A DNA stretch of 64,000 bases from Flavobacteriales bacterium (GCA_016716605.1 JADJWA010000001.1:2805684-2869683), one strand, 5' to 3'; shown: positions 5,339 through 64,000, numbered from the stretch's first letter. Notes: generated by a model from the letters alone, not told the origin. Numbers and translations: made by a program.

Positions 5339-6826
5339 TCAGCGCCAACCCAGCGTGCCTCCGCACAACCACCACGTTCTACCGAAGTCCATGTCACGTA
5401 GAACTTGCGCGGCTTGTGCTGATCGACCGCCGCCCTTGGCGCATACAGTAACGATGCGTTCGCGTCGTGACCAGTCATGAGCGTGTTGCAAAAGGCGCTC
5501 AATGGGGATGTTCATTGCTTGGGGTAGGTGGCCATTGGCATACTCCTCGGGCGAACGAACGTCCACGATACGTACGTCAGGTCTACCAAGCCAGCGTTTC
5601 AGGTCGAGCGGTTCCAAGCAACGCCGCTCCGCAGGCATCCGCAACCAGACGATTACGCCAGAGAGCACCGTGACACCACCGATGGACAGTATCGAGGCCG
5701 ACAACCCGAAGCGATCGGCGATGAGGCCCGTAAGGAGCGCACCGATCGCATAGCCCAGATCACGCCAGAGACGGAAGATGCCGAGGCTTTCGGCGCGTTG
5801 TGTCGGATGTGTATGCGCGGCAATGGTGGCGAGGAAGGTGGGGTACACCAATGCGGTGCCAAGCCCCAGCGCAGCGCTCAGCATGATGTACGCGCTCTGC
5901 GTTCCGATGTATGGCAGCAGGAGAATGGCTGTTCCTTGCAGCACCATACCCACCACGAGCATGAACTTGCGATCGACGTGATCGGCGAGCTTGCCAGTGG
6001 CCAACTGGCCCAGACCCCAAACGGCAGGATAGACCGCAGCTATCGCACCGATGCCTTGGGCATCATACCCTTTGTTGTCAAGCAACACAGGCAGCAGCCC
6101 CCAAAGCATGCCGTCGTTCAGGTTGTTCACCAAGCCCGCTTGTGTCACAGTGCCCAGCACACGATGTCGCAAGCTCGTGTCCATGAAGGGCCGTTCCAAT
6201 AATGGCACAACGCTCTTGGCCGATTCGACGCTCACATGCTGCGTTGTGTCCTTCACCCACATCACCGAAAGGAGCAGCCCGATCACCGCTACGCCAATTC
6301 CAACCTCAAAGGGCAATGGCCGTGGTCCATAGTTCGCGGCCAGCAGCCCTGTGAGGAAGGCCATGGCTGCCACGGCGAGGTAGCCCGCGAATTCGTTCAA
6401 GCCCATGGCCAAGCCACGGTCCTTCTCGCCCACGAGGTCCATCTTCATGACCACGGTACTGCTCCACGCGAACCCTTGGTGGATACCTAGCAGGATGTTC
6501 GCCGCAACGACCCAATGCCATGTTTGCGCATAGATGAGCATGAGGGGCACAGGCAACGCGAGCAGCCATCCCGTTACGAGTAAGCGCTTACGTCCGAAAC
6601 GGCGGGCCAGTCGTCCCGTGAAGTAGTTCGCGGCTGCCTTGGAAACGCCGAAGGCCATGATGAACGAAAGTGCCGCTGCATATGACGCAATGCCGAACTC
6701 CTGTTCTGCGAGAATGGGAAGCACGGTGCGTTCCAACCCGACCATGGCACCGACGAACGCGTTCACGACGACAAGCAGGCTGAACTGTCGCCAGTTCGCA
6801 CGGAGGCCCAGCACAGGAGGGTTCAT
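5339..6826 (-). CDS. MFS transporter with C-terminal rhodanese domain
   Basis: About 12 predicted TM helices typical of MFS. The C-terminal ~100 aa are rhodanese-like (VDVRSPEEYANGHLPQAMNIP...CAKGGGRSAQAA active-site Cys loop). Confidence 0.7.
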   Translation of the reverse strand: MNPPVLGLRANWRQFSLLVVVNAFVGAMVGLERTVLPILAEQEFGIASYAAALSFIMAFGVSKAAANYFTGRLARRFGRKRLLVTGWLLALPVPLMLIYAQTWHWVVAANILLGIHQGFAWSSTVVMKMDLVGEKDRGLAMGLNEFAGYLAVAAMAFLTGLLAANYGPRPLPFEVGIGVAVIGLLLSVMWVKDTTQHVSVESAKSVVPLLERPFMDTSLRHRVLGTVTQAGLVNNLNDGMLWGLLPVLLDNKGYDAQGIGAIAAVYPAVWGLGQLATGKLADHVDRKFMLVVGMVLQGTAILLLPYIGTQSAYIMLSAALGLGTALVYPTFLATIAAHTHPTQRAESLGIFRLWRDLGYAIGALLTGLIADRFGLSASILSIGGVTVLSGVIVWLRMPAERRCLEPLDLKRWLGRPDVRIVDVRSPEEYANGHLPQAMNIPIERLLQHAHDWSRRERIVTVCAKGGGRSAQAAQVLRDMDFGRTWWLCGGTLGWR

Positions 6827-6832
6827 CGTTGT

Positions 6833-7453
6833 TCAGTGTTTTGTCGGCCCGAGCAATAGCACGCGCTCCTGCTTCACGGGTGGGGACCAGTGCAGGTCGA
6901 AGCGCTCGGCGTACTTCTCCAAGGGTTCCAACCGCACGGCGGCGCGGCGTTCGTTCACATGCTCCTCATCCTCGATGGGCTGGATGTAGGGTTTGTTGTC
7001 CTTCCACCCGATCTGTGAGCCGTAGATCTGGAGTTGGCCGTGATTCACCCTGACACGGTCTTCCAACAGCGCCAGTTCCCATGAGTTTGCTTTGCCTTCC
7101 CGCACTGCATCGCGCATGAGCGGAAGGTACTGCGCTTGTATCTCAGGCTTCGCGTCCGCATGCTGGATCACCAAGAACAGTGCTTGGTTGGCCTTCTGGC
7201 CGATCACATCCGCGCCCAGCCAGCCCGCGCTGTCGATGATAGCGGTAACGCGAATGAGGTTCAATGAATCGTGAAGGATCATGTGAGCGACCACGCTGTC
7301 CTTTTGCGCTCCGAGGAAGCCGCCTACGTTATGGCGGTCGTTCTGGTCGAGGTCATGGATGCGTTCCAATTGGATGCGTAGCCCCTCCGCACCACTTTGG
7401 GCGTTGGCCGATGCGCTGGCGATGAGGGTGGTGATGAGGAGTAGGGGGCGCAT
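6833..7453 (-). CDS. secreted hypothetical protein
   Basis: Signal peptide MRPLLLITTLIASASANAQ. No recognisable catalytic motifs. The start is chosen at the internal Met of ORF 6833..7480. Confidence 0.45.
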   Translation of the reverse strand: MRPLLLITTLIASASANAQSGAEGLRIQLERIHDLDQNDRHNVGGFLGAQKDSVVAHMILHDSLNLIRVTAIIDSAGWLGADVIGQKANQALFLVIQHADAKPEIQAQYLPLMRDAVREGKANSWELALLEDRVRVNHGQLQIYGSQIGWKDNKPYIQPIEDEEHVNERRAAVRLEPLEKYAERFDLHWSPPVKQERVLLLGPTKH

Positions 7454-7502
7454 ATTGTTCAAAGGAACGAACGGCAGCATTGATTGTGATGTTCGCTATT
7501 TG

Positions 7503-9392
7503 TCAGTTCCTTAAGCGAGTTGTCCACCGCATCAACTGCAAACTGGTCATGATGACGAGCAGCGTAACTCCTACGTCCGCAGCAATGGCCAAAACAAGAT
7601 TACTCTTGCCGAAGAAGGCCAGTGCGAGGAAGATGGCCTTTACGATAATCGCCATCCCCGTATTGAAACGGATGCGCTTCAAGGTAGCGCGGGAGAGTTG
7701 GATGAGGTAGGGGATGAGTCGAAGGTCATCGTTCATGAGCGCCACGCCAGCCGTTTCAATGGCGGTGTCGCTGCCCAATGCACCCATGGCAATGCCGACG
7801 GTCGCGGTGGCCAATGCAGGCGCGTCGTTCACCCCGTCGCCTACGTGTGCAGCTGGTCCAGTCGTTCGTTGCAGGTCTGCAATGCGTGTAGCCTTGTCCT
7901 CGGGTAGCAGTCCACCGAAAACCTTGGTGATGCCCACCTGTGCTGCGACGTGCTCGGCGGCTTGTTGGTTGTCGCCAGTGAGCATGACAGGCTCCACGCC
8001 AATCGCTTTCATGGACGCGATCGCCGCTGCGCTGTCTGGTTTGATCTTGTCGGCGATGCCAATCACACCCGCTACCTGATCTGTGAAACTGACCACAACG
8101 GCGGTCTTGCCTTGCGCTTGCAATTCCTCCACAGCTTTCACCGCTTCGGGTTGCGCCTTGCGGTTCTCGGTGATGAATTCCAGCTTGCCGATGAGGATAT
8201 CGTCGTGATCGCACACCATGCACTCGGCTTGCAGGCCCTTGCCCATGGTGCTTTGAAAATCTCTCACTCTGTGAGGCTCGAATCCTTCCGCTTTGGCTCG
8301 GTCCACGATAGCCTGTGCCAGTGGATGCTCGCTGAAGGCTTCCGCGCCCGCAGCACATGCGAGAAGCTCCTCCATGGTGGTGTCCCCGAAAGTGATCACA
8401 TCCTCGGCGATCGGTTGGCCGAAGGTGATTGTGCGCGTCTTGTCGAGGCCCACCACCTTCAATGCAGCCAGCGATTCAAGGTATTTGCCGCCCTTGATCA
8501 CCACACCTCGGCCACCAGCATTGCCAATGGCACTGTAGATCGCCACGGGCGTGCTGATCACCAATGCGCATGGGCAGGCGATCACCAGCACGGTGATGGC
8601 CTGTTTCAACCATACATCGAAAGGCAGCCCCATGACGAGCACGGGCACCACTACCAAGCCTAGTGCAATGATTAATACGCATGGTGTGTAGATACGCGCG
8701 AAACGCTCGATGAACTGTTGGGTGACGCTGCGGTTCGTCTGGGCTTGGAAAGTGAGTTGAACGATACGTGAAAGCGTAGTATCGCTGTTCGTGCGCGTGG
8801 TGCGGATCTCCAATACCCCCTGCTTGTTCAAAGTGCCACCGAACACCTTGTCATCGGCACGTTTGTCCTTCGGCAATGGCTCGCCTGTTATGGTCGATTC
8901 GTCCACGCTGCTGTGACCATCCACCACGACGCCATCCAACGGGATCATCTCGCCCGACTTCACCAAGAGCACGCTGCCCAGAGGTACTTGATCAATGGGA
9001 ACGGGCTGGGATGTTCCTTTCACAAGCACCGTCTTTGGCATGCTGCTCACGAGCTTGTCCAGCGCACTTTTGCTCTGCTCGATGCCGATGTCTTCGAGCT
9101 TTTCGCCGAGCACGTAGAGCGTGATCACCACGGCCGCTTCGGGATACTCGCCGAGGTAGAAGGCCCCGATCACAGCGATCACCATGAGCAGGTTGATGCT
9201 GCTGAACCGCAGCGCGATCATTGCTTTCAGTCCTTTCCAGAGCACCTGCCAGCCTACGGCCAATACGAATGCGCCGAACAGGATGGGTGCCCATGGCATC
9301 GGCAGGTCGATGCCCATGAGTGATAGCACTTCGAGGGTGATCACCACCGCGACGGCCGCTAGTAGCAACAGGAACTTCTTGTCCTTCATCAT
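7503..9392 (-). CDS. heavy-metal translocating P1B-type ATPase (Zn/Cd/Pb type)
   Basis: TM CPC motif (ACPCALVISTP), phosphorylation-site region GLDKTRTITFG (DKTGT with Gly to Arg), hinge GDGVNDAPAL. It has no N-terminal HMA domain. Confidence 0.8.
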   Translation of the reverse strand: MMKDKKFLLLLAAVAVVITLEVLSLMGIDLPMPWAPILFGAFVLAVGWQVLWKGLKAMIALRFSSINLLMVIAVIGAFYLGEYPEAAVVITLYVLGEKLEDIGIEQSKSALDKLVSSMPKTVLVKGTSQPVPIDQVPLGSVLLVKSGEMIPLDGVVVDGHSSVDESTITGEPLPKDKRADDKVFGGTLNKQGVLEIRTTRTNSDTTLSRIVQLTFQAQTNRSVTQQFIERFARIYTPCVLIIALGLVVVPVLVMGLPFDVWLKQAITVLVIACPCALVISTPVAIYSAIGNAGGRGVVIKGGKYLESLAALKVVGLDKTRTITFGQPIAEDVITFGDTTMEELLACAAGAEAFSEHPLAQAIVDRAKAEGFEPHRVRDFQSTMGKGLQAECMVCDHDDILIGKLEFITENRKAQPEAVKAVEELQAQGKTAVVVSFTDQVAGVIGIADKIKPDSAAAIASMKAIGVEPVMLTGDNQQAAEHVAAQVGITKVFGGLLPEDKATRIADLQRTTGPAAHVGDGVNDAPALATATVGIAMGALGSDTAIETAGVALMNDDLRLIPYLIQLSRATLKRIRFNTGMAIIVKAIFLALAFFGKSNLVLAIAADVGVTLLVIMTSLQLMRWTTRLRN

Positions 9393-9404
9393 ATCAGGTG
9401 CGGT

Positions 9405-10595
9405 TCAATGGTGGTGCTCGCCACTTCCCTTGGTCAATTCACTGAGGAGGTAGTAGGCCCCTGAGACCACCACTTTGGCATCGGTAGCAAGCTGCTCGAA
9501 GGGCGTTACAGCGGTATATCCCTGATCACTTACACCAATGCGCACTTGCACTTGCTTGAAAGCGTTTTCCTCATGCTGCACGAAGATGAAGTGGTCGTCG
9601 CCGTTGCTCACGATGGCATCGTTCGGCACAGCCAGCGCACTGTCACTTTTCACCTGAATACGCGCGTCAATGAACATGCCTGGCAACAAATGATCGTCGA
9701 TGTCCTTCATGCGTGCATGAGCGACCACGGCCTGCTGTCCTTCCTCGAAGGATCGGTTCACCCCGTATATCTCCGCTTCATGCGATGAATGTGCGTCGTT
9801 GGCGATGGTGAAGCTCACCTTCTGGCCTTCGCGTACCTGTGCCAAGTCTTGCTCGAATACGGTGAGGTCGATGTGTAATGCACGGTTGTCGGTAATATCG
9901 AAGAGCGGTTTGTTCGGCTCGGCATACTGGCCAGTGGTGATGGCGATGGTATGCAAACTGCCAGGTATCGGAGCCCGTACCGCGAATGAACTGCGGATGG
10001 CACCTGCCGTGAAGCCCTCTGGATCTACACCAAAGAGTTTCAGTTTCTCGGCCATGGCCATTTGACGTGCCTCTGCACTGAGCAGGTCGCTCTGGGCCTG
10101 TTGCAAGGTGCGCTCGGCGTTGATGTTATCCGTTCGTAGATCGCGTTGACGGTTGAAGTCGGCCCGCTTCACCACCAACTGGGCGGCGCTCTCCAGATAG
10201 TCCTGTTGCAGTTGGAGGAATTCCGTACTGGCTAGTTCTGCGAGCACTTGTCCTTTCTGCACTGTCTGTCCTTCGGTGACGAGGATGCGCGTGATGGTCC
10301 CGCCCATGAGGGTACCCACTTGGGCTTGGTCCTGCGGTGGCAGCATGAGGCGACCGTTCACCTTCAGCGTGCCGCTCAATGTCTTGCGCTCCAATCCTGC
10401 GGTTTCCAGCCCGATGGCCTCGATCTGTGTAGGCGTCAATTCGACCTCGGCTCCTTCATGCTCTTCGTCATGATGTTGGCCTTCTTCTCCCACTTCTGGC
10501 GTGTTCCCCGAATCGCCACACGCGGACAGGAACAGGATGAGCAATGCCACGAGGGGAAGCCGTGACATGATGCGATGGATGAACATGTTGTTCAT
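9405..10595 (-). CDS. efflux RND periplasmic adaptor (CzcB/MFP family) with His-rich segments
   Basis: Lipoprotein-like N-terminus (LSACGDSG), His/Glu-rich EEGQHHDEEHEGAE, C-terminal GSGEHHH, and a biotinyl-lipoyl/beta-barrel MFP architecture. It sits between the RND pump and the ATPase. Confidence 0.75.
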   Translation of the reverse strand: MNNMFIHRIMSRLPLVALLILFLSACGDSGNTPEVGEEGQHHDEEHEGAEVELTPTQIEAIGLETAGLERKTLSGTLKVNGRLMLPPQDQAQVGTLMGGTITRILVTEGQTVQKGQVLAELASTEFLQLQQDYLESAAQLVVKRADFNRQRDLRTDNINAERTLQQAQSDLLSAEARQMAMAEKLKLFGVDPEGFTAGAIRSSFAVRAPIPGSLHTIAITTGQYAEPNKPLFDITDNRALHIDLTVFEQDLAQVREGQKVSFTIANDAHSSHEAEIYGVNRSFEEGQQAVVAHARMKDIDDHLLPGMFIDARIQVKSDSALAVPNDAIVSNGDDHFIFVQHEENAFKQVQVRIGVSDQGYTAVTPFEQLATDAKVVVSGAYYLLSELTKGSGEHHH

Positions 10596-10614
10596 GATGG
10601 TTCGTTTGAAGGGC

Positions 10615-13600
10615 TTAGCGCCCCGTGAGGTAGTTGAGTTGAAGAATGGAAGAGTTCAAGGCGAGCAGTGCATCGCTTTGGCCTACGTAGAGGCGATATG
10701 CTTGGTCAACGGTCTGCACGTACTCGAAGTAGCCGATAGCTCCGCTCTGGTAGAGTTTGGTGGCGTTGTTCAGGAGCGCATCGGCCAGCGCGGCCCCCTG
10801 ATCTCGGTAGTAACTGGCTTCGCGTTTCCGTTGCATGTATTCCTGCATTTCGGAAGCGACCTGTGCCGTGATGCTGCGATCGGCTGCATCGCGTTGATCG
10901 GCGGCAATACGTGTGTCGATCTCCACCGCACGGGTCGTGTTGCCCCGTCCCGTTTTGAAGAGCGGGAACGAGGCACCGACCATCCAACCCCAGAAAGGCG
11001 TGACCAGATCGAGACTTTGATTGAACGCCCCGAAGCGCAGGGCGGGTGCCCATGAGTTGCGCTGCAATTTCAGTTCAGCTTCGCTGAGCTTGACCTCTTC
11101 GTTGAGGGCGCTCAATTCGGGATTTGCACTGATGAGCGCCGTATCCAAAATGGGTTCAGGAAGTGCAATGAGTGCGCCCACGCTTGGGTCCGTCGCTGCA
11201 CCGATCCATGCTTGCAACAGTGCCTTTGCCGCGTATACGTTCGCATCTGCCCGTGATCGATCGAGCTTCACCTGTTGCCAGCGAGCTTGTGCGCTCAATC
11301 CCTCAACGGGCGGACTTTCGCCCACTTGCACATTGCGTTCTGCATACCGTGAGAGGTCGCTGTAAATGCTGTCCAACTTGGCATAGGTGGCCGCTTGTTG
11401 CTCGGCCGCTTGCAGCCCTACGTAGGCCAACGAAACCTCTCTGCGGACCTGAGCCTCGGTAAGCGCGGCGCGACTTTGGGCAAGTGCGATCCGCTGGCGA
11501 AGGGTGGCCGATCGCTGAGCGATCACATTGGGCGATGCGATGCCCGTGCTCACTTGCAGGTTATAGTCGTCCACGCTGGTGTTGATCTGACCACGCTGAT
11601 ATTGCACATCCAGCGGTTCCAGCATGAAGGCATTGCCCTTCAATGCCTGCTCGCGTTCCACCACGCCATACGCAGCATTAACGAGAGGATGTTCCTGCAA
11701 GGCCAGCGATACGGCTTGCTCCAAGGTGAGTGAAGGCGTCTGGGCCTTCGCTTCACCGCCAACGGAGATCAATGCGAGAAAGGCAACAACGGCACCTAAT
11801 TGGGGAGGACGGATCTTCTTCTTCCGCCCTGAGCCGTAGCGTTTGTAGAGCACGGGTAGCACGAAGAGCGTAAGCAGCGTGCATGTTATGAGCCCGCCGA
11901 TGACCACGGTGGCCAATGGTCGCTGTACTTCACTGCCAATAGACGTATTGAACGCCATGGGCAGGAACCCGAGGGATGCCACTGCTGCCGTAGCCAGCAC
12001 GGGACGCAAGCGCTCCTTCACGCCTCGAAGTATGCGGTGCGTGATGTCCGTATCGCCTTCCTCTTCTTCGCGGTTGAAATAGCTGATCAGGACAATGCCA
12101 TTGAGCACCGCCACACCGAATAATGCGATGAAGCCAATGCCAGCGCTGATGCTGAAGGACATACCGCGGATCCAGAGTGCCAGCACACCTCCAACGGCCG
12201 CTAAGGGTACAGCACTGAAGATGATGAGCGCCTCCCTGATGGATCCAAAAGCGAGGAACAGCAGAAGCAGGATCAACAGAAGTGCCACAGGCAGGGCCAC
12301 CCCAAGACGGGCCTTCGCTTCCTGCAAGTTTTTGAATGTGCCGCCGTATTCGATGTAATAGCCGCTGGGCAAGTCCAGCTTGTCGTTCAGGGTTTGGGAT
12401 ATGTCCATTGCCACACTCTGGATATCACGCCCGCGAACGTTCGCTTCCACCACGATCCTGCGTTCGCCGTTATCGCGACTCACCTGTGCGGGTGCGCTCA
12501 GGAACTCCACTTTGGCCACATCGCTGATCGGTACCTGTGATCCGTTCGGCAAAGGGATTCGGATGTCCTTCACCTTGTCAGCATCCGCGTCACGGTAGTT
12601 GGCCAAGCGCACAACGAGGTCGAACCTGCGCTCTCCTTCATACACAATGCCCGCTTTGCCACCCGCTAGCGCGGTGTTCAGGATGCGGTTCAGTTCTTCC
12701 ACGGTCACACCGTATTGGGCGAGACGTGTACGATCGGGCCGTACCACCAATTGGGGCATGCCCGTGATCTGTTCCACCTTCACGTCCTGTGCGCCATCCA
12801 CGGTACTCACAAGCGCCGCTACTTCATTTCCCTTCTTGAATAGCAGGTCGAGGTCGTCCCCGTAGATCTTGATTGCGAGGTCGCTCTTCACGCCAGCGAT
12901 GAGTTCATTGAAACGCATCTGGATGGGTTGCTCGAAGCTGAGGTTGACCCCAGGTATCGCGCTCATCTTCTCTTCCATCTTCTCTGCGAGATCCTCTTTG
13001 TTGTGCGCAGTAGTCCATTCATCATGATCCTTCAATACCACTATCAGGTCGGCGCTTTCAATAGGCATGGGATCGGTCGGAATTTCACTTGATCCAACTT
13101 TGCTGACCACCTCGACCACTTCTGGGAATTCCTTGACGAGGATGCTCTCCAACTGCTGGCCTACGCGCATGGTGTGCTGAAGGCTGCTCCCTTGGCGGAT
13201 GGTATAGTTGATGGCGAAGTCACCTTCGTCCAGTTCGGGGATGAACTCACCACCAAGAGAGTTGAAGACCATGAACGCACCAACGAGCAGAGCGATAGAG
13301 GCGGCAATGACCACGCCAGTGCGCTTCAGGGCTTGCTTCAGCAGAGGTTCGACCATGCGGTGCAACCGAGAGACCAGTCGATCGCTGAATGTCTCATGAG
13401 CTTTTACCTTCCTATCGAGGAAGAGCGAACTCATGAGTGGTACGTATGTGAGACTGAGCAGGAGTGCGCCGATGATCGCGAAGCTCACCGTGAGCGCCAT
13501 GGGCTTGAACATCTTCCCTTCAATGCCCGTGAGCGCGAAAATGGGCACGTATACTATGAGAATGATCACCTGACCGAAGACAGCGCTGCGCATGATACGC

Positions 13601-14925
13601 GAACTTGTTCCGATCACCTCCTTGTCCATTTCGTTGCGCGATAGTGTCTTGTTGGCATAGCTCGCATGCAGAAGGAAGAGCGTGCTTTCAACTACGATCA
13701 CTGCTCCGTCCACGATCAGGCCGAAGTCCAAAGCGCCCATGCTCATGAGGTTGGCGCTAACCCCGAATAGGCTCATGAGGCTGATGGCGAAGAGCATGGA
13801 CAACGGGATCACCGATGCCACGATCAATCCCGCTCTAATTTGGCCTAGCATCAGGACTAGGATCCCGATCACGATCGCGGCTCCGATCAACAGGTTCTCC
13901 TCGACAGTCCCGATGGTACGTGAGATAAGTCTGGATCGATCAACGAAGACGTCCACGCGCACGCCTTCGGGCAGGCTTTGCTGGATCTGCTCTATGCGCT
14001 CCTTCACTCTACCGATCACTTCCATGGCGTTCTCGCCCTTGGTCATGAGCACGACGCCGCCAACGGTTTCACCCTCGCCATTGCGTGTGAGCACACCAAA
14101 TCGCGGGGCATAACCGAACTGGACCTTTGCCACGTCGCGAATACGGACGGGCACACCACGGCTGCTACGTATGCTGAGGTCGGCGATCTGGTCCAACGAG
14201 GTCAACAGACCTTCGGATCGGATGTAGTAAAGGCCTGCGCCTTTCTCGATATAACTGCCACCCGTATTGGCATTGTTCGCTGATAGAGCATCGTACACAT
14301 CCAGCAACGTGAGGTCCATGCTGGCCAAACGCACTGGATCAACGGCTATCTCGTACTGTTTCAGTTTGCCACCGAAGCTGCTCACGTCCACCACACCCTG
14401 TACGCCCAGCAATTGTCGCCGAACGATCCAGTCTTGGATGGTGCGCAACTCCATGATGTCATATTGATCCCGATGAGTGCTGTCGATGGCAAGCGTGTAC
14501 TGGAAGATCTCGCCAAGACCCGTAGTAGGAGGGAGCATACTCGGCCTGCCGTATTCTAGAGGGATGTCCTCCTCTGCCAGTTTTAGCCGTTCGGCAACCC
14601 ATTGACGGGTGAGAGGAACAGGCATGTCGTCCTCGAAAACGATCGTAATCACGGACAGCCCGCTTCGACTGATGCTTCGGAGTTCGACCAATCCTTGCAG
14701 GTTCTTGAATTGAAGTTCCAGTGGATAGGTGATGAACTTCTCCACCTCCTGCGTGGCGAGATTCGGTGCGGTGGTGATCACCTGCACTTGGTTGTTCGTC
14801 ACGTCGGGTAATGCGTCGATGGGTAGGTGGGCGGCGCTGTAGACGCCCCAACCGACCATCGCGAGCAGGAGAAGCCCCGTGATCAGCTTGTTGGTCACGG
14901 AGAAGTGAATGATGCGATCAAGCAT
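10615..14925 (-). CDS. CzcA-family heavy-metal RND pump fused in frame to a TolC-like outer membrane factor
   Basis: The first ~1040 aa are CzcA-like (MLDRIIHFSV..., 12 TM, large periplasmic loops) and end in ...LYKRYGSG. With no stop or ATG, the frame continues into RKKKIRPPQLGAVVAFLALISVGGEAKAQ (signal-peptide-like) and ~410 aa of OMF (TolC/CzcC-like) sequence. The start is chosen at MLDRII (the ORF extends to 14997). Confidence 0.7.
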   Translation of the reverse strand: MLDRIIHFSVTNKLITGLLLLAMVGWGVYSAAHLPIDALPDVTNNQVQVITTAPNLATQEVEKFITYPLELQFKNLQGLVELRSISRSGLSVITIVFEDDMPVPLTRQWVAERLKLAEEDIPLEYGRPSMLPPTTGLGEIFQYTLAIDSTHRDQYDIMELRTIQDWIVRRQLLGVQGVVDVSSFGGKLKQYEIAVDPVRLASMDLTLLDVYDALSANNANTGGSYIEKGAGLYYIRSEGLLTSLDQIADLSIRSSRGVPVRIRDVAKVQFGYAPRFGVLTRNGEGETVGGVVLMTKGENAMEVIGRVKERIEQIQQSLPEGVRVDVFVDRSRLISRTIGTVEENLLIGAAIVIGILVLMLGQIRAGLIVASVIPLSMLFAISLMSLFGVSANLMSMGALDFGLIVDGAVIVVESTLFLLHASYANKTLSRNEMDKEVIGTSSRIMRSAVFGQVIILIVYVPIFALTGIEGKMFKPMALTVSFAIIGALLLSLTYVPLMSSLFLDRKVKAHETFSDRLVSRLHRMVEPLLKQALKRTGVVIAASIALLVGAFMVFNSLGGEFIPELDEGDFAINYTIRQGSSLQHTMRVGQQLESILVKEFPEVVEVVSKVGSSEIPTDPMPIESADLIVVLKDHDEWTTAHNKEDLAEKMEEKMSAIPGVNLSFEQPIQMRFNELIAGVKSDLAIKIYGDDLDLLFKKGNEVAALVSTVDGAQDVKVEQITGMPQLVVRPDRTRLAQYGVTVEELNRILNTALAGGKAGIVYEGERRFDLVVRLANYRDADADKVKDIRIPLPNGSQVPISDVAKVEFLSAPAQVSRDNGERRIVVEANVRGRDIQSVAMDISQTLNDKLDLPSGYYIEYGGTFKNLQEAKARLGVALPVALLLILLLLFLAFGSIREALIIFSAVPLAAVGGVLALWIRGMSFSISAGIGFIALFGVAVLNGIVLISYFNREEEEGDTDITHRILRGVKERLRPVLATAAVASLGFLPMAFNTSIGSEVQRPLATVVIGGLITCTLLTLFVLPVLYKRYGSGRKKKIRPPQLGAVVAFLALISVGGEAKAQTPSLTLEQAVSLALQEHPLVNAAYGVVEREQALKGNAFMLEPLDVQYQRGQINTSVDDYNLQVSTGIASPNVIAQRSATLRQRIALAQSRAALTEAQVRREVSLAYVGLQAAEQQAATYAKLDSIYSDLSRYAERNVQVGESPPVEGLSAQARWQQVKLDRSRADANVYAAKALLQAWIGAATDPSVGALIALPEPILDTALISANPELSALNEEVKLSEAELKLQRNSWAPALRFGAFNQSLDLVTPFWGWMVGASFPLFKTGRGNTTRAVEIDTRIAADQRDAADRSITAQVASEMQEYMQRKREASYYRDQGAALADALLNNATKLYQSGAIGYFEYVQTVDQAYRLYVGQSDALLALNSSILQLNYLTGR

Positions 14926-15030
14926 GCGGAATGCGTGAATGGGAATGAGAACCTGAGAGAAAAGGACAACGCGCGGAACGCACGTCTGCATGGCCACAAT
15001 AGGCCACGCGAAAGGGCCGAGGCCCTTAAC

Positions 15031-15336
15031 TCAAGCTTGGGGAGGTTGCCACACGGGAATGCGCGGCATTGAAAGCACGAATGCAGTGCCGTCATTATAG
15101 GCCAGTGAGCCTACTGGTGGCACGCGAGGCGAATGATCGATCACGACCAAAGTGACGCCTGCGCAACATGTGCATGTGCAGAACGGGCTGCACAAGTCCA
15201 TGTGCTCATGCTGGTCCCCCTCGGTTTGAACTGCGCACGTCTCGTGGTTTGCTACCTGAGCGTCAGTGCAAGGTTGAACGCTGAGGGCGAATACATAGAG
15301 GGCAAGGATGATGCAGAACCAGCGCATGGGTGGCAA
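15031..15336 (-). CDS. small secreted Cys/His-rich protein (putative metal-binding)
   Basis: 101 aa with a signal peptide, then HETCAVQTEGDQHEHMDLCSPFCTCTCCAG. It lies directly upstream of, and co-oriented with, the czc-like operon. Confidence 0.4.
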   Translation of the reverse strand: MPPMRWFCIILALYVFALSVQPCTDAQVANHETCAVQTEGDQHEHMDLCSPFCTCTCCAGVTLVVIDHSPRVPPVGSLAYNDGTAFVLSMPRIPVWQPPQA

Positions 15337-15834: not shown

Positions 15835-16317
15835 TCACCACAAGCGATGGACACCAGCAGCATGCTCTGGTTCTTTTTGAAGGGGCGCACCCGCCGTCTG
15901 CCCCTTATGGGCAACGGGCGGGGCACCCCCTCCTGTTTGATATTCTTCCTTCATCAGGTAGCATCTGGCGTTCACATCCTTGCCGAGGTAGAAGCACAGG
16001 CCCTCTGCACCCCAGACAGGAGTGATCTTGACATTCAATCCCTTTTCTCGCAGTTCGTCCGCAATACGCTCGACCTCCTTCTTCTCTTTCGCCATGAGCC
16101 AATGCACATGCGCCCGATCTATCACTGCGCTACCTCTTTGTTGCATTCTTTCTACTACGATCACGCCGTCGTGTGGGATGGTGGCTGCCATTTTCACAAC
16201 ATCCTGGCATAGCTGTTCTGCACCTTCATCGGTACATGGATTCGCTGTTATCATGTAGCCTCCGTTCACGAGGAGGCCACCTAGATCTCTTACTGTACTG
16301 CGGTCAATCTGTTTCAT
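15835..16317 (-). CDS. hypothetical protein
   Basis: 160-aa ORF co-oriented in the island. No recognisable motif. Confidence 0.35.
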   Translation of the reverse strand: MKQIDRSTVRDLGGLLVNGGYMITANPCTDEGAEQLCQDVVKMAATIPHDGVIVVERMQQRGSAVIDRAHVHWLMAKEKKEVERIADELREKGLNVKITPVWGAEGLCFYLGKDVNARCYLMKEEYQTGGGAPPVAHKGQTAGAPLQKEPEHAAGVHRLW

Positions 16318-16519: not shown

Positions 16520-16987
16520 TCACTCAGGCGGTCGCTTCGGAGGCGATTCCGTAGTTCTCTCGCTCTTTGACTTTTCGCGCTCCCGTTCTTTCCTTCTGCG
16601 GTACATCGCCACGGCTGTACGCACAGTTCCCGATGGCAGCATCAGGAATTCATCCAACGCGGCCTTGCTGAAGCGGTAATGCTCACCCTTCAGGGCATCG
16701 GGATTTACAGGCTTGACGAGGCGGGCACCAACGTAGTCGCGAAATGTCCGTTCGCTCACCGCTATGTAGCTCCACGCCTCACAGCTAGAGTGGAGCTTAC
16801 CGTACTTCGGTGTTGGTGTTTCGACCTTTTTATGGAGGTCTGCGACTTGTTGGCGAAGTGCGGATATTTCCTGCACTTCCATGGCGTCGCGTGCCATGTC
16901 AAGAGCAAGGGCATGTATGCGCTTTGCTCGTGTGGGGGGTAACTTGCTTAAAGCAGTTGATAGCTCATCTATGTCCCATGCTGACAT
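16520..16987 (-). CDS. excisionase/AlpA-like helix-turn-helix DNA-binding protein
   Basis: SERTFRDYVGARLVKPVNPDALKGEHYRFSKAALDEFL resembles the HTH_17/excisionase-type domain that accompanies Bacteroidota integrases. The tail is basic (RRRKEREREKSK). It is adjacent to the integrase. Confidence 0.5.
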   Translation of the reverse strand: MSAWDIDELSTALSKLPPTRAKRIHALALDMARDAMEVQEISALRQQVADLHKKVETPTPKYGKLHSSCEAWSYIAVSERTFRDYVGARLVKPVNPDALKGEHYRFSKAALDEFLMLPSGTVRTAVAMYRRRKEREREKSKSERTTESPPKRPPE

Positions 16988-17193: not shown

Positions 17194-18712
17194 TCACGCC
17201 CTTCTGCGCTCTGGTTCACGAAAGCGCACGTTGATTAAGTCGATGCCAGGAAACACTTCATCCGCCATGGCCATCGCTTGGATGACCAGCAGTTCCGCCT
17301 TCTTTTCCAAGGGGCGATTCAAATACGCGCGATCAGCGGACTTGTCGGGTAGTTTATGACCCATCATCTGGCACACAAGGTCGCGGGCAATACCCATGTC
17401 CTCCTCAGCCCATTGCTTGGTCGTGCGCCTGAAATCATGACTGGATAAAACCGAGTGTAGAGGCAGGGAGTTTTGTTCTTTTTTGCTCTTTTTCCCACGG
17501 ACCTTTACCTCGATTTGGTCGTACAGCCTGTTGAAACCCATGGCCAGAGCAACCTCCTTGATGTGGCGGTTGTGCGTCTGGTCGTCGGGAGGCATTACAG
17601 GCCGCACGCCTTTCAGAACGTCCAGCGCTGGGGTGAACAACGGGATGACCATCTCGTTCATCGGGGGCTTTGTGCGGACCATTCGGATGGCTGTAAAATC
17701 GAAGGTCTTGCCTTTGAACCATTGAATGTCTTTTGTGAGCACCTGCCGCAAGTCCGTTATGTCCACCCCCGTGAAACCCTGAAGAACCATCAACTGGCGG
17801 CAGTTCTCCAAGTGTGGCTTGTCCAGCTTCGTCAGGACTAGATGGGAAAGCTCTTCAGCGGTCAAGTAGGGCTTGACCGTGTGCTCCCGACTGGCCGATA
17901 CGAACGAAGTTGTGTCTATGGACTTGATCCGTTTGTTTTCGATGGCATGGTTCAGAGTCGTCTTTATCTGCTGCTGGTACTTCTCCAACGTGTTGACCGA
18001 GTACCGAGATGGCTGTTCGTCCACGGCCCATTTCCACGCGTCGGTACTTTTCATGTCCTTGGGGTCGGCGTAGGGGAGATATTCAGTGGATCGGGCTATG
18101 AGGTTGCTAAAATCGGTCCAGTCCAAAGGGGTGAAATTTCCGAGCATGACCTCTCCTTCGCCCTTGATCCAGCCGAACAGCGGGTGGGTCTTATCCTTGG
18201 CCATGGATCGGATGACTGGCAACATGTCCAAGAGCGCTGCGGTGGTTGAGTACTTCTGTCTCGTCCGAATGTTGTTGCAGAAGTTTGGATCAGCGATGAT
18301 CTCACGGATGTAGTCCGCCAGTGGGATGGGGGTGATCTGCTCAGTATCGACCTTCAGGCGGGCGAGTATCTGGTCGGGGTGTGGCTTTCCCCCCAGTTCC
18401 TTGCTGAGGGCCTTGAATGTATTCCAGACCTCCGCCCTCAGTTCAGCAACACCTTCCGTAATCTGGACCAGTTGGTCCTTCTTTTTCTTCATGAAGGAGC
18501 CGCTGAATGCCTGCTCCGTCATGTCCCACTCGCTTGCATCCACGGCATGTCCCGTTGTCACCCTTAGGGTGAGGTATTGGGGGGACCTTCCAACCTCCAT
18601 TGCACGAAAGCCATAGTTGAATGCTAGCAGGAGGTGGATCCGCCCCTGAACGTATCGCCCAACCAACCTGATGGAGGCGGGGCCGTAGGTCTTCTTGTAT
18701 GTCTTGCCCATG
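17194..18712 (-). CDS. tyrosine site-specific integrase (Bacteroidota type)
   Basis: The C-terminal catalytic region has HDFRRTTKQWAEE (HxxR), MGHK and DRAYLNRP (catalytic Tyr). The N-terminal start is uncertain. The ORF is open to 19002, but a plausible Met lies at 18712 (MGKTYKK...). Confidence 0.75.
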
Positions 18713-18918
18713 GTATATGGTGTTAGTTTCACCGCAACGTTCCGATGAGCCCGATGCTGGCCCCAAATCCAACATTGCTCCAAAATCCGCTCAAAGACCC
18801 TCTTCCCGAACCCTTCTGAAGTGCCCGTCCAACTTTGCATTCCCCCAGCACTGGCGAGGCGTTGGTACCCATGCAGACCACTGCATCGCCATGCAAACCG
18901 TCGCGTCCCCCGCGCTAC

Positions 18919-18955
18919 AAGGCCATCCCCGAAAGGCGGATGGCCTTTTGCTTTT
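18919..18955 (+). other. GC-rich hairpin with T-tract at the island/backbone junction
   Basis: aaggccatcc-ccgaaaggc-ggatggcctt followed by ttgcttttc. It lies 11 nt upstream of the next + strand gene and about 200 nt upstream of the integrase N-terminus. Confidence 0.35.
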
Positions 18956-18965
18956 CTTCGCAGGC

Positions 18966-19379
18966 ATGCGCGCGCTCCTCTACGTGCTGTTGCTCTCTTC
19001 ATGCGGGGTTGGCTTCAGGCCCTCCGATGAGGCCTCGATCCGATCACTGATGGCTGAACAGGAAGCGGCCTGGGACCGTGGTGACATCCCCGGCTTCATG
19101 ACGGCCTATTCCGATAGCATCTGCTTCCACAGCCCCAGGGGCAATACCTGCGGCAAGCAGCAGGTCATGGAGAACTACATGCGCTCTTACCCCACGCCGG
19201 AGCACATGGGCGATCTGCAATTCGGAATCCACGAGGTGGTGCCCGCTGGCGCGGACCATGCCTGGCTTTCGGGTACTTGGGCGCTGCACCGCCAGGCAGA
19301 TACCTTGAAAGGGGCCTTCGCGCTGCTCTGGGCGAGGCAGCCGGAGGGCTGGAGGATCATCAGGGACCACACGTATTGA
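18966..19379 (+). CDS. lipoprotein, SnoaL-like/DUF4440 (NTF2 fold) family
   Basis: The N-terminus LLLSSCGV is a lipobox. The motif AEQEAAWDRGDIPGFMTAYSD...GWRI is typical of NTF2-like DUF4440. The start is the internal ATG of ORF 18699..19379. Confidence 0.5.
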   Translation: MRALLYVLLLSSCGVGFRPSDEASIRSLMAEQEAAWDRGDIPGFMTAYSDSICFHSPRGNTCGKQQVMENYMRSYPTPEHMGDLQFGIHEVVPAGADHAWLSGTWALHRQADTLKGAFALLWARQPEGWRIIRDHTY

Positions 19380-19382
19380 CCC

Positions 19383-20015
19383 ATGCTCGACGAGACCGGC
19401 GCCCCCATCACCCTACTGCTGTTAGGTGCCAGTATCGTATTGTCCTTGCTTGCCTTCGGGAACCAGAAGCTCTTCAGCGACCTGCTCTTCGAACCCTTCG
19501 TGATCAAGGCTCGCGGGCAATGGCACCGCTTCATCACGCACGCCTTCATCCACGCGAATTGGCCGCACCTGTTGGTGAACATGTTCGTGCTCTTTGGCTT
19601 CGGGCAGCATGTGGAGCAAGCGCTCTGGTTCTACGCCCCGGCCGCGCCGGCGCTCGCCTTCGCCACGCTCTACCTTGGTGGGATCCTATTCTCTTCGCTT
19701 CCCGCATACAGGCGCCACATCCATGATCCGAACTACCGCGCTGTGGGGGCTAGCGGTGCTGTCTCAGCAGTGCTGTTCGCGTACATCTTGATGACGCCCA
19801 CCAACGCCATCCGCTTCCTGTTCATTCCGGCGCCCATACCGGCTTGGGTCTTCGGTGGTCTCTACTTGGCTTACAGCTGGTACATGGACAAGCGCGGCCA
19901 GGACAACGTGGCGCACGATGCCCACTTCTACGGCGCCGTGTTCGGCCTGGTGTTCATGATCGTTCTCGACCCGGGCATCGTGGCCGAGTTCATCACGCAG
20001 ATCCTCGGCGAATGA
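19383..20015 (+). CDS. rhomboid-family intramembrane serine protease
   Basis: HAFIHANWPHLLVNM, GASGAVSAVLFAY (GxSG catalytic Ser) and HFYGAVFGL (catalytic His), with six TM segments. Confidence 0.75.
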   Translation: MLDETGAPITLLLLGASIVLSLLAFGNQKLFSDLLFEPFVIKARGQWHRFITHAFIHANWPHLLVNMFVLFGFGQHVEQALWFYAPAAPALAFATLYLGGILFSSLPAYRRHIHDPNYRAVGASGAVSAVLFAYILMTPTNAIRFLFIPAPIPAWVFGGLYLAYSWYMDKRGQDNVAHDAHFYGAVFGLVFMIVLDPGIVAEFITQILGE

Positions 20016-39407: not shown

Positions 39408-39701
39408 CGATTCGGGGCTTTGAGGATCAAGGTGGCACTTCAGAATTCTCGATGGCAGCTACGGGCTCGGCCGACCAAAGATGGGACGTGCATTCCGACC
39501 ACGGCTGCCCGGTGATGTCTGGCGACACCTTCTTGGTGCCATGGCCCTCTCTCGCGGGCCGCTCACGACGAGCCCTTTCATCGTACTGCCCTTGATCCGC
39601 TTGGCACTGCCTGAATCAGCCTGCTCATTGCGGCGGCCATGCGCGATCCGTGGGAACATGAAAAAGCCCCGCCGCTGCGCGGCGAGGCTTTGATCATCAA
39701 G

Positions 39702-39785
39702 TGCCCAGGACTGGACTCGAACCAGCACACCCTTTCGGGCGCTACCACCTCAAAGTAGTGCGTCTACCAATTTCGCCACCTGGGC
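39702..39785 (-). tRNA. tRNA-Leu (anticodon GAG), type II with long variable arm
   Basis: Reverse complement is GCCCAGGTGGCGAAATTGGTAGACGCACTACTTTGAGGTGGTAGCGCCCGAAAGGGTGTGCTGGTTCGAGTCCAGTCCTGGGCA. The 7-bp acceptor stem pairs, the anticodon loop is TTGAGGT, and the T-loop is TTCGAGT. Confidence 0.85.
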
Positions 39786-39845
39786 AGTCTCGAAAGAACA
39801 TGAGGCTCATGAGCGTTGCTCTCCGCTCATTCACCCGAAATCCAG

Positions 39846-39918
39846 TGACTCGGCTGGGGCTCGAACCCAGGACCCCAACATTAAAAGTGTTGTGCTCTAC
39901 CAACTGAGCTACCGAGTC
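39846..39918 (-). tRNA. tRNA-Lys (anticodon UUU)
   Basis: Reverse complement is GACTCGGTAGCTCAGTTGGTAGAGCACAACACTTTTAATGTTGGGGTCCTGGGTTCGAGCCCCAGCCGAGTCA. The acceptor stem pairs (GACTCGG/CCGAGTC), the anticodon loop is CTTTTAA, and the T-loop is TTCGAGC. Confidence 0.9.
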
Positions 39919-51873: not shown

Positions 51874-52800
51874 TCAGAAGTACCGCGGGTCCCTTACCCG
51901 GATGCGGTAGCCGAATTCGTATTGCACCAAGAGCTCATGCGAGCCGTGGTGATGCGGGTTGATCCTGGAGAAGCCGGCGTCGTATGAATAGCCAATCCGC
52001 CATTGCGGTGTGGGCAGCACCTCCACCATGCCGATGATGGCATCGCCGGTGCGAACCGATGCGCCAAGCCACAATTTGTCCTTGTAGATGAGATTGCCGC
52101 TCACATCGCCCTGCAGGCCACTGGCAAGCCGGTAACGGAGAAGCGAAGTGGGCTTCAGCTTGAATTCATCGTTCAAGGTGAACACGTAGCCGCCGGTGAC
52201 CATGGGCTCCAGGTCCACGCGCTCATCAGACAGCCGGTAGGTCCTGTTCAGCACGTCGTAGCGGTGCGCAAGGAGGAAGGGCACCGATGCGCCCACGTAC
52301 CCTGTCTTGGTCTGATACAGGACACCGGCGCTGAAATTCGGTCGGGCCGCTCCTCTCGAATCGCCCGCGAAGCTCGGATCGTTGCCATCGACGATGGCCA
52401 CTTGCGTCCATTGGGCGCGATAAAGGCTGAGGCCGGCTCCGATCCCGAAGGCGAGCTTGGCCTTCTTAGGCATCTTGATCCGGTAGGCATAGTTGGCCAG
52501 CAGGCCGGTCTCGTTGCTCACGCCGATGCGATCGTTGAAGACCATCAGCCCCAAGCCGACCTTGCTCCTGCGCACAGGTGCATGCACGGCGATGTTCTGG
52601 GTGATGGGCGCTCCATCGAAACCGACCCATTGCTGCCGGTGCGTGAGCGTGGCGCTAAGAACGTCGCGGCTTCCGGCATAAGCCGGATTGATGGCCAGGC
52701 CATTGAACAGGTATTGGCTCGTGAGTGGCGTGTGCTGGGACATGCAATCGACCGCGAGGGCCGCTGCCACGGAAGCAAGAAAGGGCAGTTGGAACCTCAC
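51874..52800 (-). CDS. type IX secretion system membrane protein PorP/SprF family
   Basis: QYLFNGLAINPAYAGSRDVLSATLTHRQQW is the PorP/SprF signature. It has a beta-barrel-like C-terminus and sits immediately downstream of the CHU_C adhesin. Confidence 0.8.
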   Translation of the reverse strand: MRFQLPFLASVAAALAVDCMSQHTPLTSQYLFNGLAINPAYAGSRDVLSATLTHRQQWVGFDGAPITQNIAVHAPVRRSKVGLGLMVFNDRIGVSNETGLLANYAYRIKMPKKAKLAFGIGAGLSLYRAQWTQVAIVDGNDPSFAGDSRGAARPNFSAGVLYQTKTGYVGASVPFLLAHRYDVLNRTYRLSDERVDLEPMVTGGYVFTLNDEFKLKPTSLLRYRLASGLQGDVSGNLIYKDKLWLGASVRTGDAIIGMVEVLPTPQWRIGYSYDAGFSRINPHHHGSHELLVQYEFGYRIRVRDPRYF

Positions 52801-61800: not shown

Positions 61801-64000
61801 TGATGTCCCCTGTCTGGACCAGGCTGCCCACTGCGAGGTCCTGCAGCAAACTCAGCGAGCTGGTGCAGTTGTCCATGACGCTGGTCGCCATGCCGGTCAC
61901 ATTAGGCACTGCTGCCTTGCATGAGGCGCCTGCAGTGAGTTCAATCGTCGGCGGGCAGGTCACCAAGGGGGCCTCATAGTCGCCGCTGATCACCACGAAG
62001 CTGCATGCGCTCGTGTTGCCCGATGGATCGATTGCGGTATAGGTCACGGTTACGGTATCTGGAAGCCACAGTCCATCACCATGGGTCGAGGTCCACGCGA
62101 CACTTGTGCAGTTATCGCTCAATGAATCGGGCGGATTCAGGCTGACATCCGCCCCGCACTGACCGGTAACGTACGTGCTCGAATAGCTGGCCGGGCACAC
62201 GATCATCGGAGCTATCGTGTCCAGCACGGTGATTGACCAGTCGCAGATACTGAAGTTCCCGTTCGCGTCGAAGATCGTGTCGGTGAATTGGTGCGTCCCC
62301 AAGGAAGGTCGATCGCGCTTCCGCCACCAACACCCAGATCCACATCGACCAGTATCGCGGTGCCGTTCACGGAGATGGTCCCGCCAGCTGATCCCGCGAT
62401 CAGGAATGGGCCACCGCTGATCGGTCCGAGGCAATTGTCAGTGCTCGCGATGTTCGGAACATTGTACGGCGCCGTGCAGGATGCCGCGGTCACAAAGAGC
62501 GTATCGTCCTGGGGGCAGACCACCGATGGCGGGATCAGGTCCTGCACGATGATGGTGGTTGTGCTGCTATAGGTGGTGCCGCATGCGCCCCCATCCAGCA
62601 GAACCCGGAATCGCATGGTGCCGGTGATTCCGCTCCAGGTAAGGGAGTCGGATGATTCAGTGAGCGGGATCCAGGTGACGCCATCCACGCTGCGCTCCCA
62701 TCGGATCACCTGGCCGCTGGAGCCCGTGAGGGTGAGCACACCGGAAGCGCTGGGGCAATAGGTGCCGCCGCCACTGATGGTGCCGCCTTCAGGTGGGTCG
62801 TCCACAAGGATCGTGCGTGTATGCGTGTAATTGCAGGAACCAAGTATCACAGCGTAGGTGACGGGATACTGACCTGAGGCGGGTGGCGTGAATGTGCCTG
62901 CTGCGCTCACGTATGGCCCGCCGCTCCAGATGCCACCAGCCATGCTGGATCCCAGGAAGCGGACAGCGTCGAGCAGGAAGGCGGTATAGAGCCCGTTGCT
63001 GTGCCGTTGCACCTTGATGAAGCGTGCGTTCACCGGTACCGGGTAGCTCGTGGTGACGTAGGTTCCGCTGGTGGTGCTGTAGGTGGTTGAGTTGCTCCAG
63101 GTCACACCATCCAAGGATGAGGAAACGAGCATGCGCGCCTGCACGCCGGCGGTCTGGCTTCGCCACAAGAGGCTTACGGCCTCTCCAACCAGAACCGTAT
63201 CGGCCAGATCAAGCACCGCCCAGCTACTCGTGGCGTTGAAGGATGCTCCGACTCCGTTTGGAGCGCCAACAGCTTGCTCGGGGGTTATGGCGTTGGAGCT
63301 GGCAACCACCGAATCGGCATAAGCCAGCAGGTAGATGTTCAGGTCGAATGGAGCATTGCTCGTGCAGAACGGACCTGGTTGCGCGAAGCGGGCCGGATTG
63401 TTCGAGACGTTGGCCCAATCGGGGTCAGTGAAGCTGGCCGTGAACAGGTCCGTGCCGCTTGATCCGGCGTACGTGTTGCTGCCCAGAGTGAGCGCGTCCT
63501 CGAATTGTCCGCCGACGATTTGGCCTCCATTGCCCGTAGCGGCGATCGCCATTGCGCTTTCATCATCAGGGCTCGCTTCGCGCTGGTACCACACGGCCGT
63601 GCCATCCCGGTTGAATCGAGCGAACAGGAGATCTTCATCGGAATTGCCCGGGATCACGGTGCCGCCATCACTGGTCAGTGTACCGGAGCTCATTCCGGCC
63701 ACATTGATCTGCCCGTTCCGGCCAACCGAGACATCGTAACCTGTGGCGCCGTGGTCAATGCTGCTCGAGGCGGTCCGGATCCAATTGGTGATGCCGTTGG
63801 TTGGATGGAGCGATGCAAGGAACCAGTAATCGTGCGTGCCGGGATTCGTCGGCGTGATGCCGCCCGGGAATAGCGTTCCAGTGTGCGTTCGGCCGGTGAT
63901 GTACACACCGGCGCAATCGACCGCCACGCCGTTGCACTCCGCTTCCGAGTCACCCGGATTGTTGATCAGCCTGGTCCAAGCATGACCACCCGCAAGGCTC
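52797..64000 (-). CDS. giant T9SS-secreted cell-surface adhesin (HYR/Ig-like domains, ~53 Cys-rich 39-aa repeats, CHU_C gliding-motility C-terminal domain). It is 5'-truncated by the window and has local frame breaks
   Basis: The C-terminus NGDGSNDRWEIRGIEAYP...DDTYFYVLN is the CHU_C/T9SS type B sorting domain. HYR-like domains lie at 60.4 to 62.4 kb. ORFs 52797..56822, 56880..59630, 59624..62434 and 62212..63927 are collinear pieces of one reading direction, separated by 1-nt indels. Confidence 0.65.
54180..60410 (-). repeat. tandem array of about 53 near-identical 117-bp units encoding the repeat LIDCTNVPGG(S/A)ALPGTPCDDGDP(T/A)TGNDVYGADCSCAGQ
   Basis: Strict 117-nt periodicity is visible directly. 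Long blocks are identical at an offset of 3159 bp (27 units). Confidence 0.9.

Follow-up and report, generated by a model that had tools for sequence, protein, structure and literature searches.

An in-frame fusion of a CzcA-type RND permease and a TolC-like outer-membrane factor, with a predicted internal signal peptide, in Bacteroidota

The DNA analysed here (the window) is a stretch of 64,000 nucleotides from a Flavobacteriales bacterium (GCA_016716605.1, JADJWA010000001.1:2805684-2869683). Its minus strand carries a fused gene, czcA::czcC, in which a heavy-metal efflux permease of the resistance-nodulation-division (RND) type is joined in frame, through a predicted signal peptide, to an outer-membrane factor (OMF) of the TolC type. 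The open reading frame (ORF) listing gives a single uninterrupted frame at 10615..14997 (-), 1460 codons. The parts of the gene are given below, with the evidence in brackets. Residues are numbered throughout from the ATG at 14925.

11815..14925, minus strand: RND permease domain, residues 1-1037 (Pfam, TIGR00914, ZneA alignment, hydropathy).
11743..11814, minus strand: predicted internal signal peptide, I1038-A1061, 24 residues (junction alignment, hydropathy).
10618..11742, minus strand: predicted mature OMF, Q1062-R1436, 375 amino acids (aa) (Pfam OEP, AlphaFold2, Foldseek).
10615-10617, minus strand: stop codon of the fused gene.

The true start is likely the ATG at 14925 (MLDRIIHFSV...), which gives a product of 1436 aa. 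It is placed there because the alignments with homologues and with the family hidden Markov model begin at this codon and because GenBank entry MBK9148403.1, from a Flavobacteriales metagenome-assembled genome (MAG), is exactly the 1436-aa protein. The GTG at 14997 was considered as a start and rejected: homologues, ZneA and TIGR00914 all align from ATG 14925. The junction DNA reads ctc tac aaa cgc tac ggc tca ggg cgg aag aag aag atc cgt cct ccc caa tta ggt gcc gtt gtt gcc ttt ctc gca ttg atc tcc gtt ggc ggt gaa gcg aag gcc cag, which translates as LYKRYGSGRKKKIRPPQLGAVVAFLALISVGGEAKAQ; the translation across the boundary between pump and OMF contains LPVLYKRYGSGRKKKIRPPQLGAVVAFLALISVGGEAKAQTPSLTLEQAV. 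Read in frame, the window DNA has no stop at the junction and no ATG, GTG or TTG upstream of the hydrophobic segment. The initial annotation had described a frame at 10615-14997 that runs from a CzcA-type pump into a full TolC-like OMF and has neither a stop nor an ATG at the junction. The continuity of the frame is borne out, as are the missing codons and the nature of both halves, which give strong family matches; the start at 14997 probably does not hold. The junction, which had been placed at 11.85-11.87 kb, lies slightly lower, at ~11.74-11.83 kb.

Residues 1-1037 form a heavy-metal RND permease of the CzcA/ZneA type. Pfam ACR_tran covers residues 5-1027 (E 2.4e-278) and NCBIfam TIGR00914 (CusA/CzcA) residues 1-1036 (1132.1 bits; cutoff 701.45). 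The best PDB sequence match is ZneA (4k0e, E 4.7e-202), aligned end to end (ZneA 1-1024) with the RND part only; CusA is also aligned end to end (E 1.2e-172). In sequence and fold searches of the PDB, the fusion is absent from the solved structures. Hydropathy gives 12 RND segments, with large loops at 33-344 and 555-873, and the domain ends in a basic cytoplasmic tail, KRYGSGRKKK. Divalent-cation pumps of the heavy-metal efflux (HME) group carry an acidic proton-relay motif, DFGX3DGAX3VEN, in transmembrane helix 4 (TM4; other transmembrane, TM, helices are named likewise); this definition is said to go back to Nies in 2003 and Goldberg in 1999. The fused protein has DFGLIVDGAVIVVES at this place: D, D and E are kept, and S stands in place of the last N. 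The substrates are probably Zn, Cd or Co, as judged from homology; a neighbouring Zn/Cd-type P1B ATPase gives context for the putative metal efflux.

Residues 1062-1436 are modelled as a complete, short TolC/CusC-like OMF protomer. Pfam OEP (PF02321) matches in two stretches up to residue 1435 (E 9.6e-28; 97.7 bits, cutoff 22). The AlphaFold2 monomer model (residues 1000-1436, 43 homologues) has a mean predicted local distance difference test score of 89, with low confidence for TM12 and the 13th helix. From residue 1066, the modelled elements are H1, H2 (20 residues), a beta-hairpin S1/S2, H3 (70) and H4 (36); a second repeat, H,H,E,E,H(67),H(35), is a duplicate of this set, in the TolC order of elements. 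In the model, the OMF part retains four amphipathic strands of the barrel together with the whole TolC fold. A Foldseek search of the PDB gives TolC, ST50, CmeC, SilC, CusC, OprM, OprN, VceC and MtrE with probability 1.0 and a template-modelling score of ~0.7. Two usual features of OMF families differ here: the OMF precursor is neither a separate polypeptide nor N-terminally signalled. Processing as a lipoprotein, by signal peptidase II, was considered and rejected: the junction contains no Cys and no lipobox.

Between the two halves lies a 13th uncharged segment, 15 residues long (L1043-G1057), beyond which hydropathy finds nothing hydrophobic. The intact uncharged TM stretches of the pump have 17-29 residues as against these 15, a range that omits TM4 and part of TM5, which are broken by charged residues. 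The surrounding sequence is laid out as a signal peptide: an n-region I-R-P-P-Q after RKKK, an h-region LGAVVAFLALISV(GG) and a c-region E-A-K-A. The predicted cleavage site is A1061|Q1062, with A1059 at -3 (motif A-K-A|Q). In stand-alone relatives, an N-terminal signal peptide is found at the matching position; in the fused protein, it is found from residue 1038, behind 12 TM helices, and not at the N-terminus.

The junction alignment includes the query (the fused protein of the window) and 119 full-length homologues, 120 sequences altogether. Across them, the n-region has a net charge of +2 to +7, and the h-core a mean Kyte-Doolittle value of 2.6; the sequence of the core is itself unconserved. 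A small residue followed by Q is found 27-39 residues beyond TM12 in 119 of the 120. The residue at -1 is Ala in 108 and one of A/S/G/C in 119; that at -3 is one of A/V/S/G/T in 109, mostly A/V/S; that at +1 is Gln in 119. A1061 and Q1062 belong to a small number of almost invariant columns in an otherwise variable stretch. More distant fused proteins also have the small-residue-then-Q site (43 of 44), and the median length of their h- and c-regions together is 19, versus 17 in the signal peptides of stand-alone OMFs.

A Gln immediately after the signal peptidase I (SPase I) site corresponds to the Q-rule of Bacteroidetes (PMC5837995). A stand-alone outer-membrane efflux protein of Tannerella forsythia, Tanf_07615, has a pyroglutamate N-terminus verified by mass spectrometry, MKQFIFLWMAVILPFCAMA/QEVLTLDQCR (PMC5837995 supplement). 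It resembles the query in its n-h-c signal peptide, in the A-x-A followed by Q and in the OMF first helix that comes next (...CAMA/QEVLTLDQC versus ...EAKA/QTPSLTLEQA), and differs in that the signal peptide of the query is internal, behind a 1037-residue protein with 12 TM helices. Searched for proteomic data, the supplements of the Q-rule paper gave only the stand-alone OMF and no fused member (PMC5837995). In the window, the signal peptides of six other predicted exported proteins end in A/G-Q; the window also encodes a CHU_C type IX secretion domain, and the organism is therefore placed in Bacteroidota. I1038-A1061 is read from its sequence as the OMF's own signal peptide, which fits both the -3/-1 rule of SPase I and the Q-rule.

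The full chain was searched against 5.8 billion proteins and the best 120 matches were analysed. All but one are full-length (119 of 120; 1421-1477 aa) and all of these are fused; the remaining one is a partial sequence. The full-length matches cover 98-100% of the query at 55-100% identity; all have ACR_tran and nearly all have a recorded OEP. They come from NCBI, JGI, ENA and Logan, under the names Flavobacteriales, Bacteroidia, Chitinophagaceae, Ferruginibacter and the isolate Limnovirga soli. The isolate Arenibacter palladensis carries a fused member of 1455 aa, and the ORF is likewise continuous in L001, a locus from an independent MAG (85% identity). The OMF part was searched separately, against 1.84 billion representatives at 50% identity, which gave 1798 relatives; the best 150 were examined. 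In at least 45 of these 150, an RND C-terminus precedes the OMF in the same chain; 78 stand alone, at ~400 aa, and begin with a Met and a signal peptide of their own. The database label of the fused proteins is 'CusA/CzcA family heavy metal efflux RND transporter'. The fusion appears from these sequences to be a widespread and stable architecture in Bacteroidota; its taxonomic breadth is given by the source names of the matched proteins.

The initial annotation had listed a sequencing error among its explanations. A missing stop or an indel in the assembly could join two genes falsely; the identical GenBank protein stems from a MAG, MAG assemblies may hold indel errors, and canonical czc systems have separate genes. 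The chance that the fusion is such an artefact is practically nil. The error is refuted because the fusion is conserved in frame across independent assemblies and isolates: it occurs in well over 100 independent clusters from the four sources, at 55-93% identity, with Limnovirga soli, Arenibacter palladensis and L001 among them, and the junction region aligns among homologues with no disruption of the frame.

Unfused relatives indicate how the fusion arose. Two stand-alone OMF relatives lie on contigs (L004, L005) in which the OMF gene directly follows czcA and precedes czcB, in the order czcA-stop-(1-4 nt)-ATG(signal peptide)-czcC-czcB. One junction reads ...LPILYGIFENNKSK-TAA-a-ATG AAA AGA... 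and the other ...FDEFKFKKK-TAA-cctt-ATG AAA AGT... The gene order in these operons is that of the window, and their OMFs belong to the same short subfamily, 25-30% identical to the OMF of the query; their OMF signal peptide starts where the junction segment of the query starts, and their RND tail likewise ends in a short K-rich stretch. They differ in the stop and the 1-4 nt that precede the czcC ATG; the query has lost both, and its ATG is now ATC. The query is collinear with the unfused layout: basic tail KRYGSGRKKK, residue of the old start, signal peptide, mature OMF. The ATC codon (Ile) at 11812-11814 sits at the ancestral OMF start position. L001 likewise has ATC, and other members of the query clade have Leu; in Limnovirga soli, the old start is kept as an ATG after an A-rich stretch (L002 8107-8112). 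The czcA-stop-czcC order of the unfused relatives argues that the fusion is an evolutionary loss of the stop codon and of the intergenic spacer between czcA and czcC. The earlier suggestion of a lost stop or start codon is in this sense upheld, as an event fixed in a large lineage. Comparison of orthologous loci, also proposed there, gives separate A and C genes in the unfused relatives and a fused gene in all 119 full-length close homologues.

The RND C-terminus is cytoplasmic, as established from the structures of AcrB, CusA and ZneA. The topological puzzle raised by the initial annotation, a cytoplasmic end followed by an outer-membrane protein, is correctly stated. With the C-terminus on this side, the basic tail and the short hydrophobic segment should insert N-in/C-out. 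The reading favoured here, absent from the options of the initial annotation and judged probable, is that the chain is a polyprotein cleaved by SPase I at the junction, which would yield two ordinary proteins and a normal pump. The ribosome would make one chain of 1436 residues, whose 12 RND helices would insert co-translationally. The basic tail RKKK would remain in the cytoplasm; the 15-residue hydrophobic segment would insert N-in/C-out as a 13th helix and drive the OMF part into the periplasm. SPase I would then cut after A-K-A1061, leaving an RND protein with 13 helices (~115 kDa) in the inner membrane. The freed OMF (375 aa) would begin with Gln, probably cyclised to pyroglutamate; it would trimerise, enter the outer membrane and assemble with the RND trimer and the CzcB-like lipoprotein adaptor into a tripartite pump of the usual kind. 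The probable gain would be an obligatory 1:1 synthesis of two trimeric partners, with no re-initiation at a second cistron, which might be helpful in a phylum that does not use Shine-Dalgarno-based coupling. The sequences show the fusion and its conservation, the identity and fold of the domains, the layout of the signal peptide and the gene order of unfused relatives; cleavage, what becomes of the products and any selective advantage are proposed on this comparative basis.

The main competitor of cleavage is an uncleaved chain, in which the junction segment is a permanent 13th TM helix that tethers an OMF-like domain to the pump, as a periplasmic duct or some other non-canonical assembly. The reading frame is indeed continuous and conserved, a hydrophobic segment in the correct N-in/C-out orientation does follow a basic tail, and the support for cleavage is not direct. 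The length of the segment is that of a signal peptide and below that of the pump's TM stretches; its sequence drifts while A-x-A|Q is nearly invariant, for which a simple anchor offers no rationale; and the closely related OMFs are ordinary secreted proteins. Geometry bears on the same point. The distance from the Q to H1 has a median of 4 residues and a maximum of 20. According to the helix lengths of the model, the N-terminal H1 of the OMF is equatorial, ~30 Å (about 20 helical residues) below the barrel and ~70 Å above the periplasmic tip. In the assembled pump, the OMF tip lies above an RND headpiece of ~70 Å (AcrAB-TolC structures). A linker of ~4 residues is too short, and an OMF tethered in the inner membrane therefore could not reach the outer membrane, for which it nevertheless keeps barrel strands and a TolC fold. 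A permanent tether is unlikely on these grounds, and the more specific form of it, a single uncleaved chain with the OMF fold held at the inner membrane as a duct unlike the canonical RND-adaptor-TolC arrangement, is quite unlikely. A milder variant of this last reading keeps cleavage but would make fused synthesis a mechanistic requirement: the pump would pass its own channel subunit to the assembly machinery where it inserts, and the retained 13th helix would have a role in the pump. The 13th-helix tether proposed earlier is retained in part: the segment probably does insert as a helix, but the A-x-A|Q site and the ~4-residue linker speak against a permanent anchor. SPase I cleavage remains the best explanation because it accounts together for the signal-peptide length, the drifting sequence, the near-invariant SPase I/Q-rule site, the secreted relatives and the geometry.

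Two further routes to a separate OMF were weighed. Initiation at a retained czcC start could make the OMF separately, the read-through fusion being a tolerated by-product. A Met is present in the n-region of 60 of the 120 close homologues, many of them aligned with the ancestral OMF start (e.g. ...KRKKKM KINT...), and the ATG of Limnovirga soli has the A-rich stretch before it. In the query and L001 the codon is ATC, and in other clade members it encodes Leu, while the signal peptide and the OMF are still fully conserved. An internal start codon in the window was rejected: with ATC at the position, the next candidate in frame is a TTG inside the h-region. No in-frame start precedes the h-region in the query or L001, and their OMF must therefore come through the fusion; every close homologue keeps the fused frame, a sign that the fusion product is of importance. 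Internal initiation as the source of the OMF is very improbable, and in the window it is excluded for canonical start codons. Some Met-bearing lineages may make the OMF by both cleavage and internal initiation. The chain might also be split by a protease other than SPase I, for instance a rhomboid intramembrane protease: a gene with a rhomboid domain lies at 19383-20015 (+) of the window, 4.4 kb from the fused gene, and the geometry requires that the halves be separated. The conserved motif matches that of SPase I and the Q-rule exactly and is not a rhomboid motif. In Limnovirga soli (L002) and in L003, no rhomboid domain is recorded for the genes called in the neighbourhood of the fused gene, some of which carry no Pfam record; the nearby rhomboid is therefore probably coincidental, and another protease is held to be highly improbable.

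Several points weigh against the favoured reading. The case for cleavage consists, for all fused members, of comparative sequence and predicted structure. Signal-peptide-like segments behind many TM helices are not always cleaved. In the 60 homologues with a Met in the n-region, internal initiation could supply the OMF and would explain the conservation of the signal peptide with no cleavage. Metal specificity is assigned from homology. A crude neighbour-joining tree of OMF domains (52 fused and 78 stand-alone representatives, ~25% identity) intersperses fused and unfused forms, with 35 state changes versus 40.6 for shuffled labels, and is uninformative. The interspersion may correspond to repeated fusion and fission or to an unreliable tree at ~25% identity.

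By the family features of its HME-RND, OMF and adaptor components, the system is assigned to the CzcCBA/ZneCAB type of tripartite pump. Like CzcCBA, ZneCAB and CusCBA of Cupriavidus metallidurans and E. coli, it combines an HME-RND permease, an adaptor and a TolC-fold OMF, and it has the same type of TM4 acidic motif (DFG...DGA...VE). In the known systems each protein has its own gene, mostly in the order C-B-A; the window has the order A-C-B, with A and C in one frame. CusC-type OMFs are lipoproteins, whereas the OMF of the query is short (375 aa mature), non-lipoprotein and preceded by a predicted SPase I site. An analogue of the mechanism is the FbcH cytochrome b-c1 precursor of Bradyrhizobium japonicum, reportedly described by Thöny-Meyer and colleagues in 1989 and 1991 as split post-translationally at an internal signal peptide. 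FbcH is likewise said to join a polytopic inner-membrane protein, through an internal signal peptide, to an exported partner of the same complex. The analogy is one of mechanism only: the FbcH proteins are unrelated (respiratory complex III), both products are at the inner membrane and the host is a proteobacterium.

The textbook tripartite RND pump is encoded by three genes, and few bacterial polyproteins are split at an internal signal peptide. A literature search gave no account of an RND-OMF fusion; subscription journals and TCDB/InterPro notes were outside the coverage, and an earlier description is possible. The parts seen of a 2021 Chem Rev review do not mention it. Of the sequence clusters in this OMF subfamily, about one third are fused forms, and the architecture has apparently gone unremarked. 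The parts are ordinary, and the end product is most probably an ordinary pump. If cleavage occurs, the fusion would be a natural example of signal peptidase I acting behind 12 TM helices, of an RND protein with an extra 13th helix and of a hard-wired 3:3 output of partners destined for two membranes, in a phylum that initiates independently of Shine-Dalgarno sequences. Annotation and resistance-gene surveys should then read these 'CzcA' entries as including an OMF, and operons seemingly devoid of an OMF would encode one.

The genes at 5339-15327 form a tightly packed run on the minus strand. They are listed from upstream to downstream.

15031..15327, minus strand: DUF6660, small Cys/His-rich protein (Pfam E 1.5e-11), immediately upstream of the fused gene.
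10615-14925, minus strand: fused czcA::czcC.
9405..10595, minus strand: CzcB-like periplasmic adaptor, i.e. membrane fusion protein (TIGR01730, 152.5 bits, cutoff 94.9; HlyD_D23).
7503..9392, minus strand: P1B-type heavy-metal ATPase, Zn/Cd type (TIGR01525, 556.6 bits; TIGR01512, cadmium family, 479.7 bits).
6833-7480, minus strand: DUF6624, exported protein (Q-rule signal peptide ...ASASANA/QSG...).
5339-6826, minus strand: MFS-rhodanese protein, 495 aa (Pfam MFS_1 and C-terminal rhodanese).

The adaptor gene begins 19 nt beyond the end of the fused gene and encodes a predicted lipoprotein (LFLSAC). Its position is conserved in L001, L002, L003 and the unfused L005, and the fused gene, the adaptor and an ATPase of this kind are found together in L001, L002 and L003. 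The DUF6660 gene, found at the same upstream position in Limnovirga soli (L002 4605-4922), is probably the first gene of the operon. Its protein contains CTDAQVANHETCAVQTEGDQHEHMDLCSPFCTCTCCAG and may be a metal-binding accessory or sensor of czc operons of Bacteroidota. The DUF6624 gene lies between those for the P1B ATPase and the MFS-rhodanese protein, and its product may belong to the metal cluster as a periplasmic component. The combination of MFS_1 with rhodanese is an unusual transporter-sulfurtransferase fusion, encoded by the last gene of the strand-run in this metal-resistance cluster.

Upstream of the metal cluster, at 16520-16987, 17194-19002 and 15835-16317 (all minus strand), lie a weak match to HTH_17 (excisionase-like) and two ORFs (602 and 160 aa) that have no Pfam match. 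Three adjacent very large ORFs are found at 52797-56822, 56880-59630 and 59624-62434 (all minus strand). The first two have identical N-terminal regions of repeated 'LIDC(A/T)NVPGG(S/A)ALPGTPCDDGDPTTGND' units; ORF 52797-56822 has a CHU_C type IX secretion signal at its end, and ORF 59624-62434 holds HYR domains. The other strand has an ORF of 1864 aa (54180-59774), probably a shadow of the GC-rich repeats. Genes for tRNA-Leu(GAG) and tRNA-Lys(TTT) are adjacent at 39701-39918 (minus strand) of the window.

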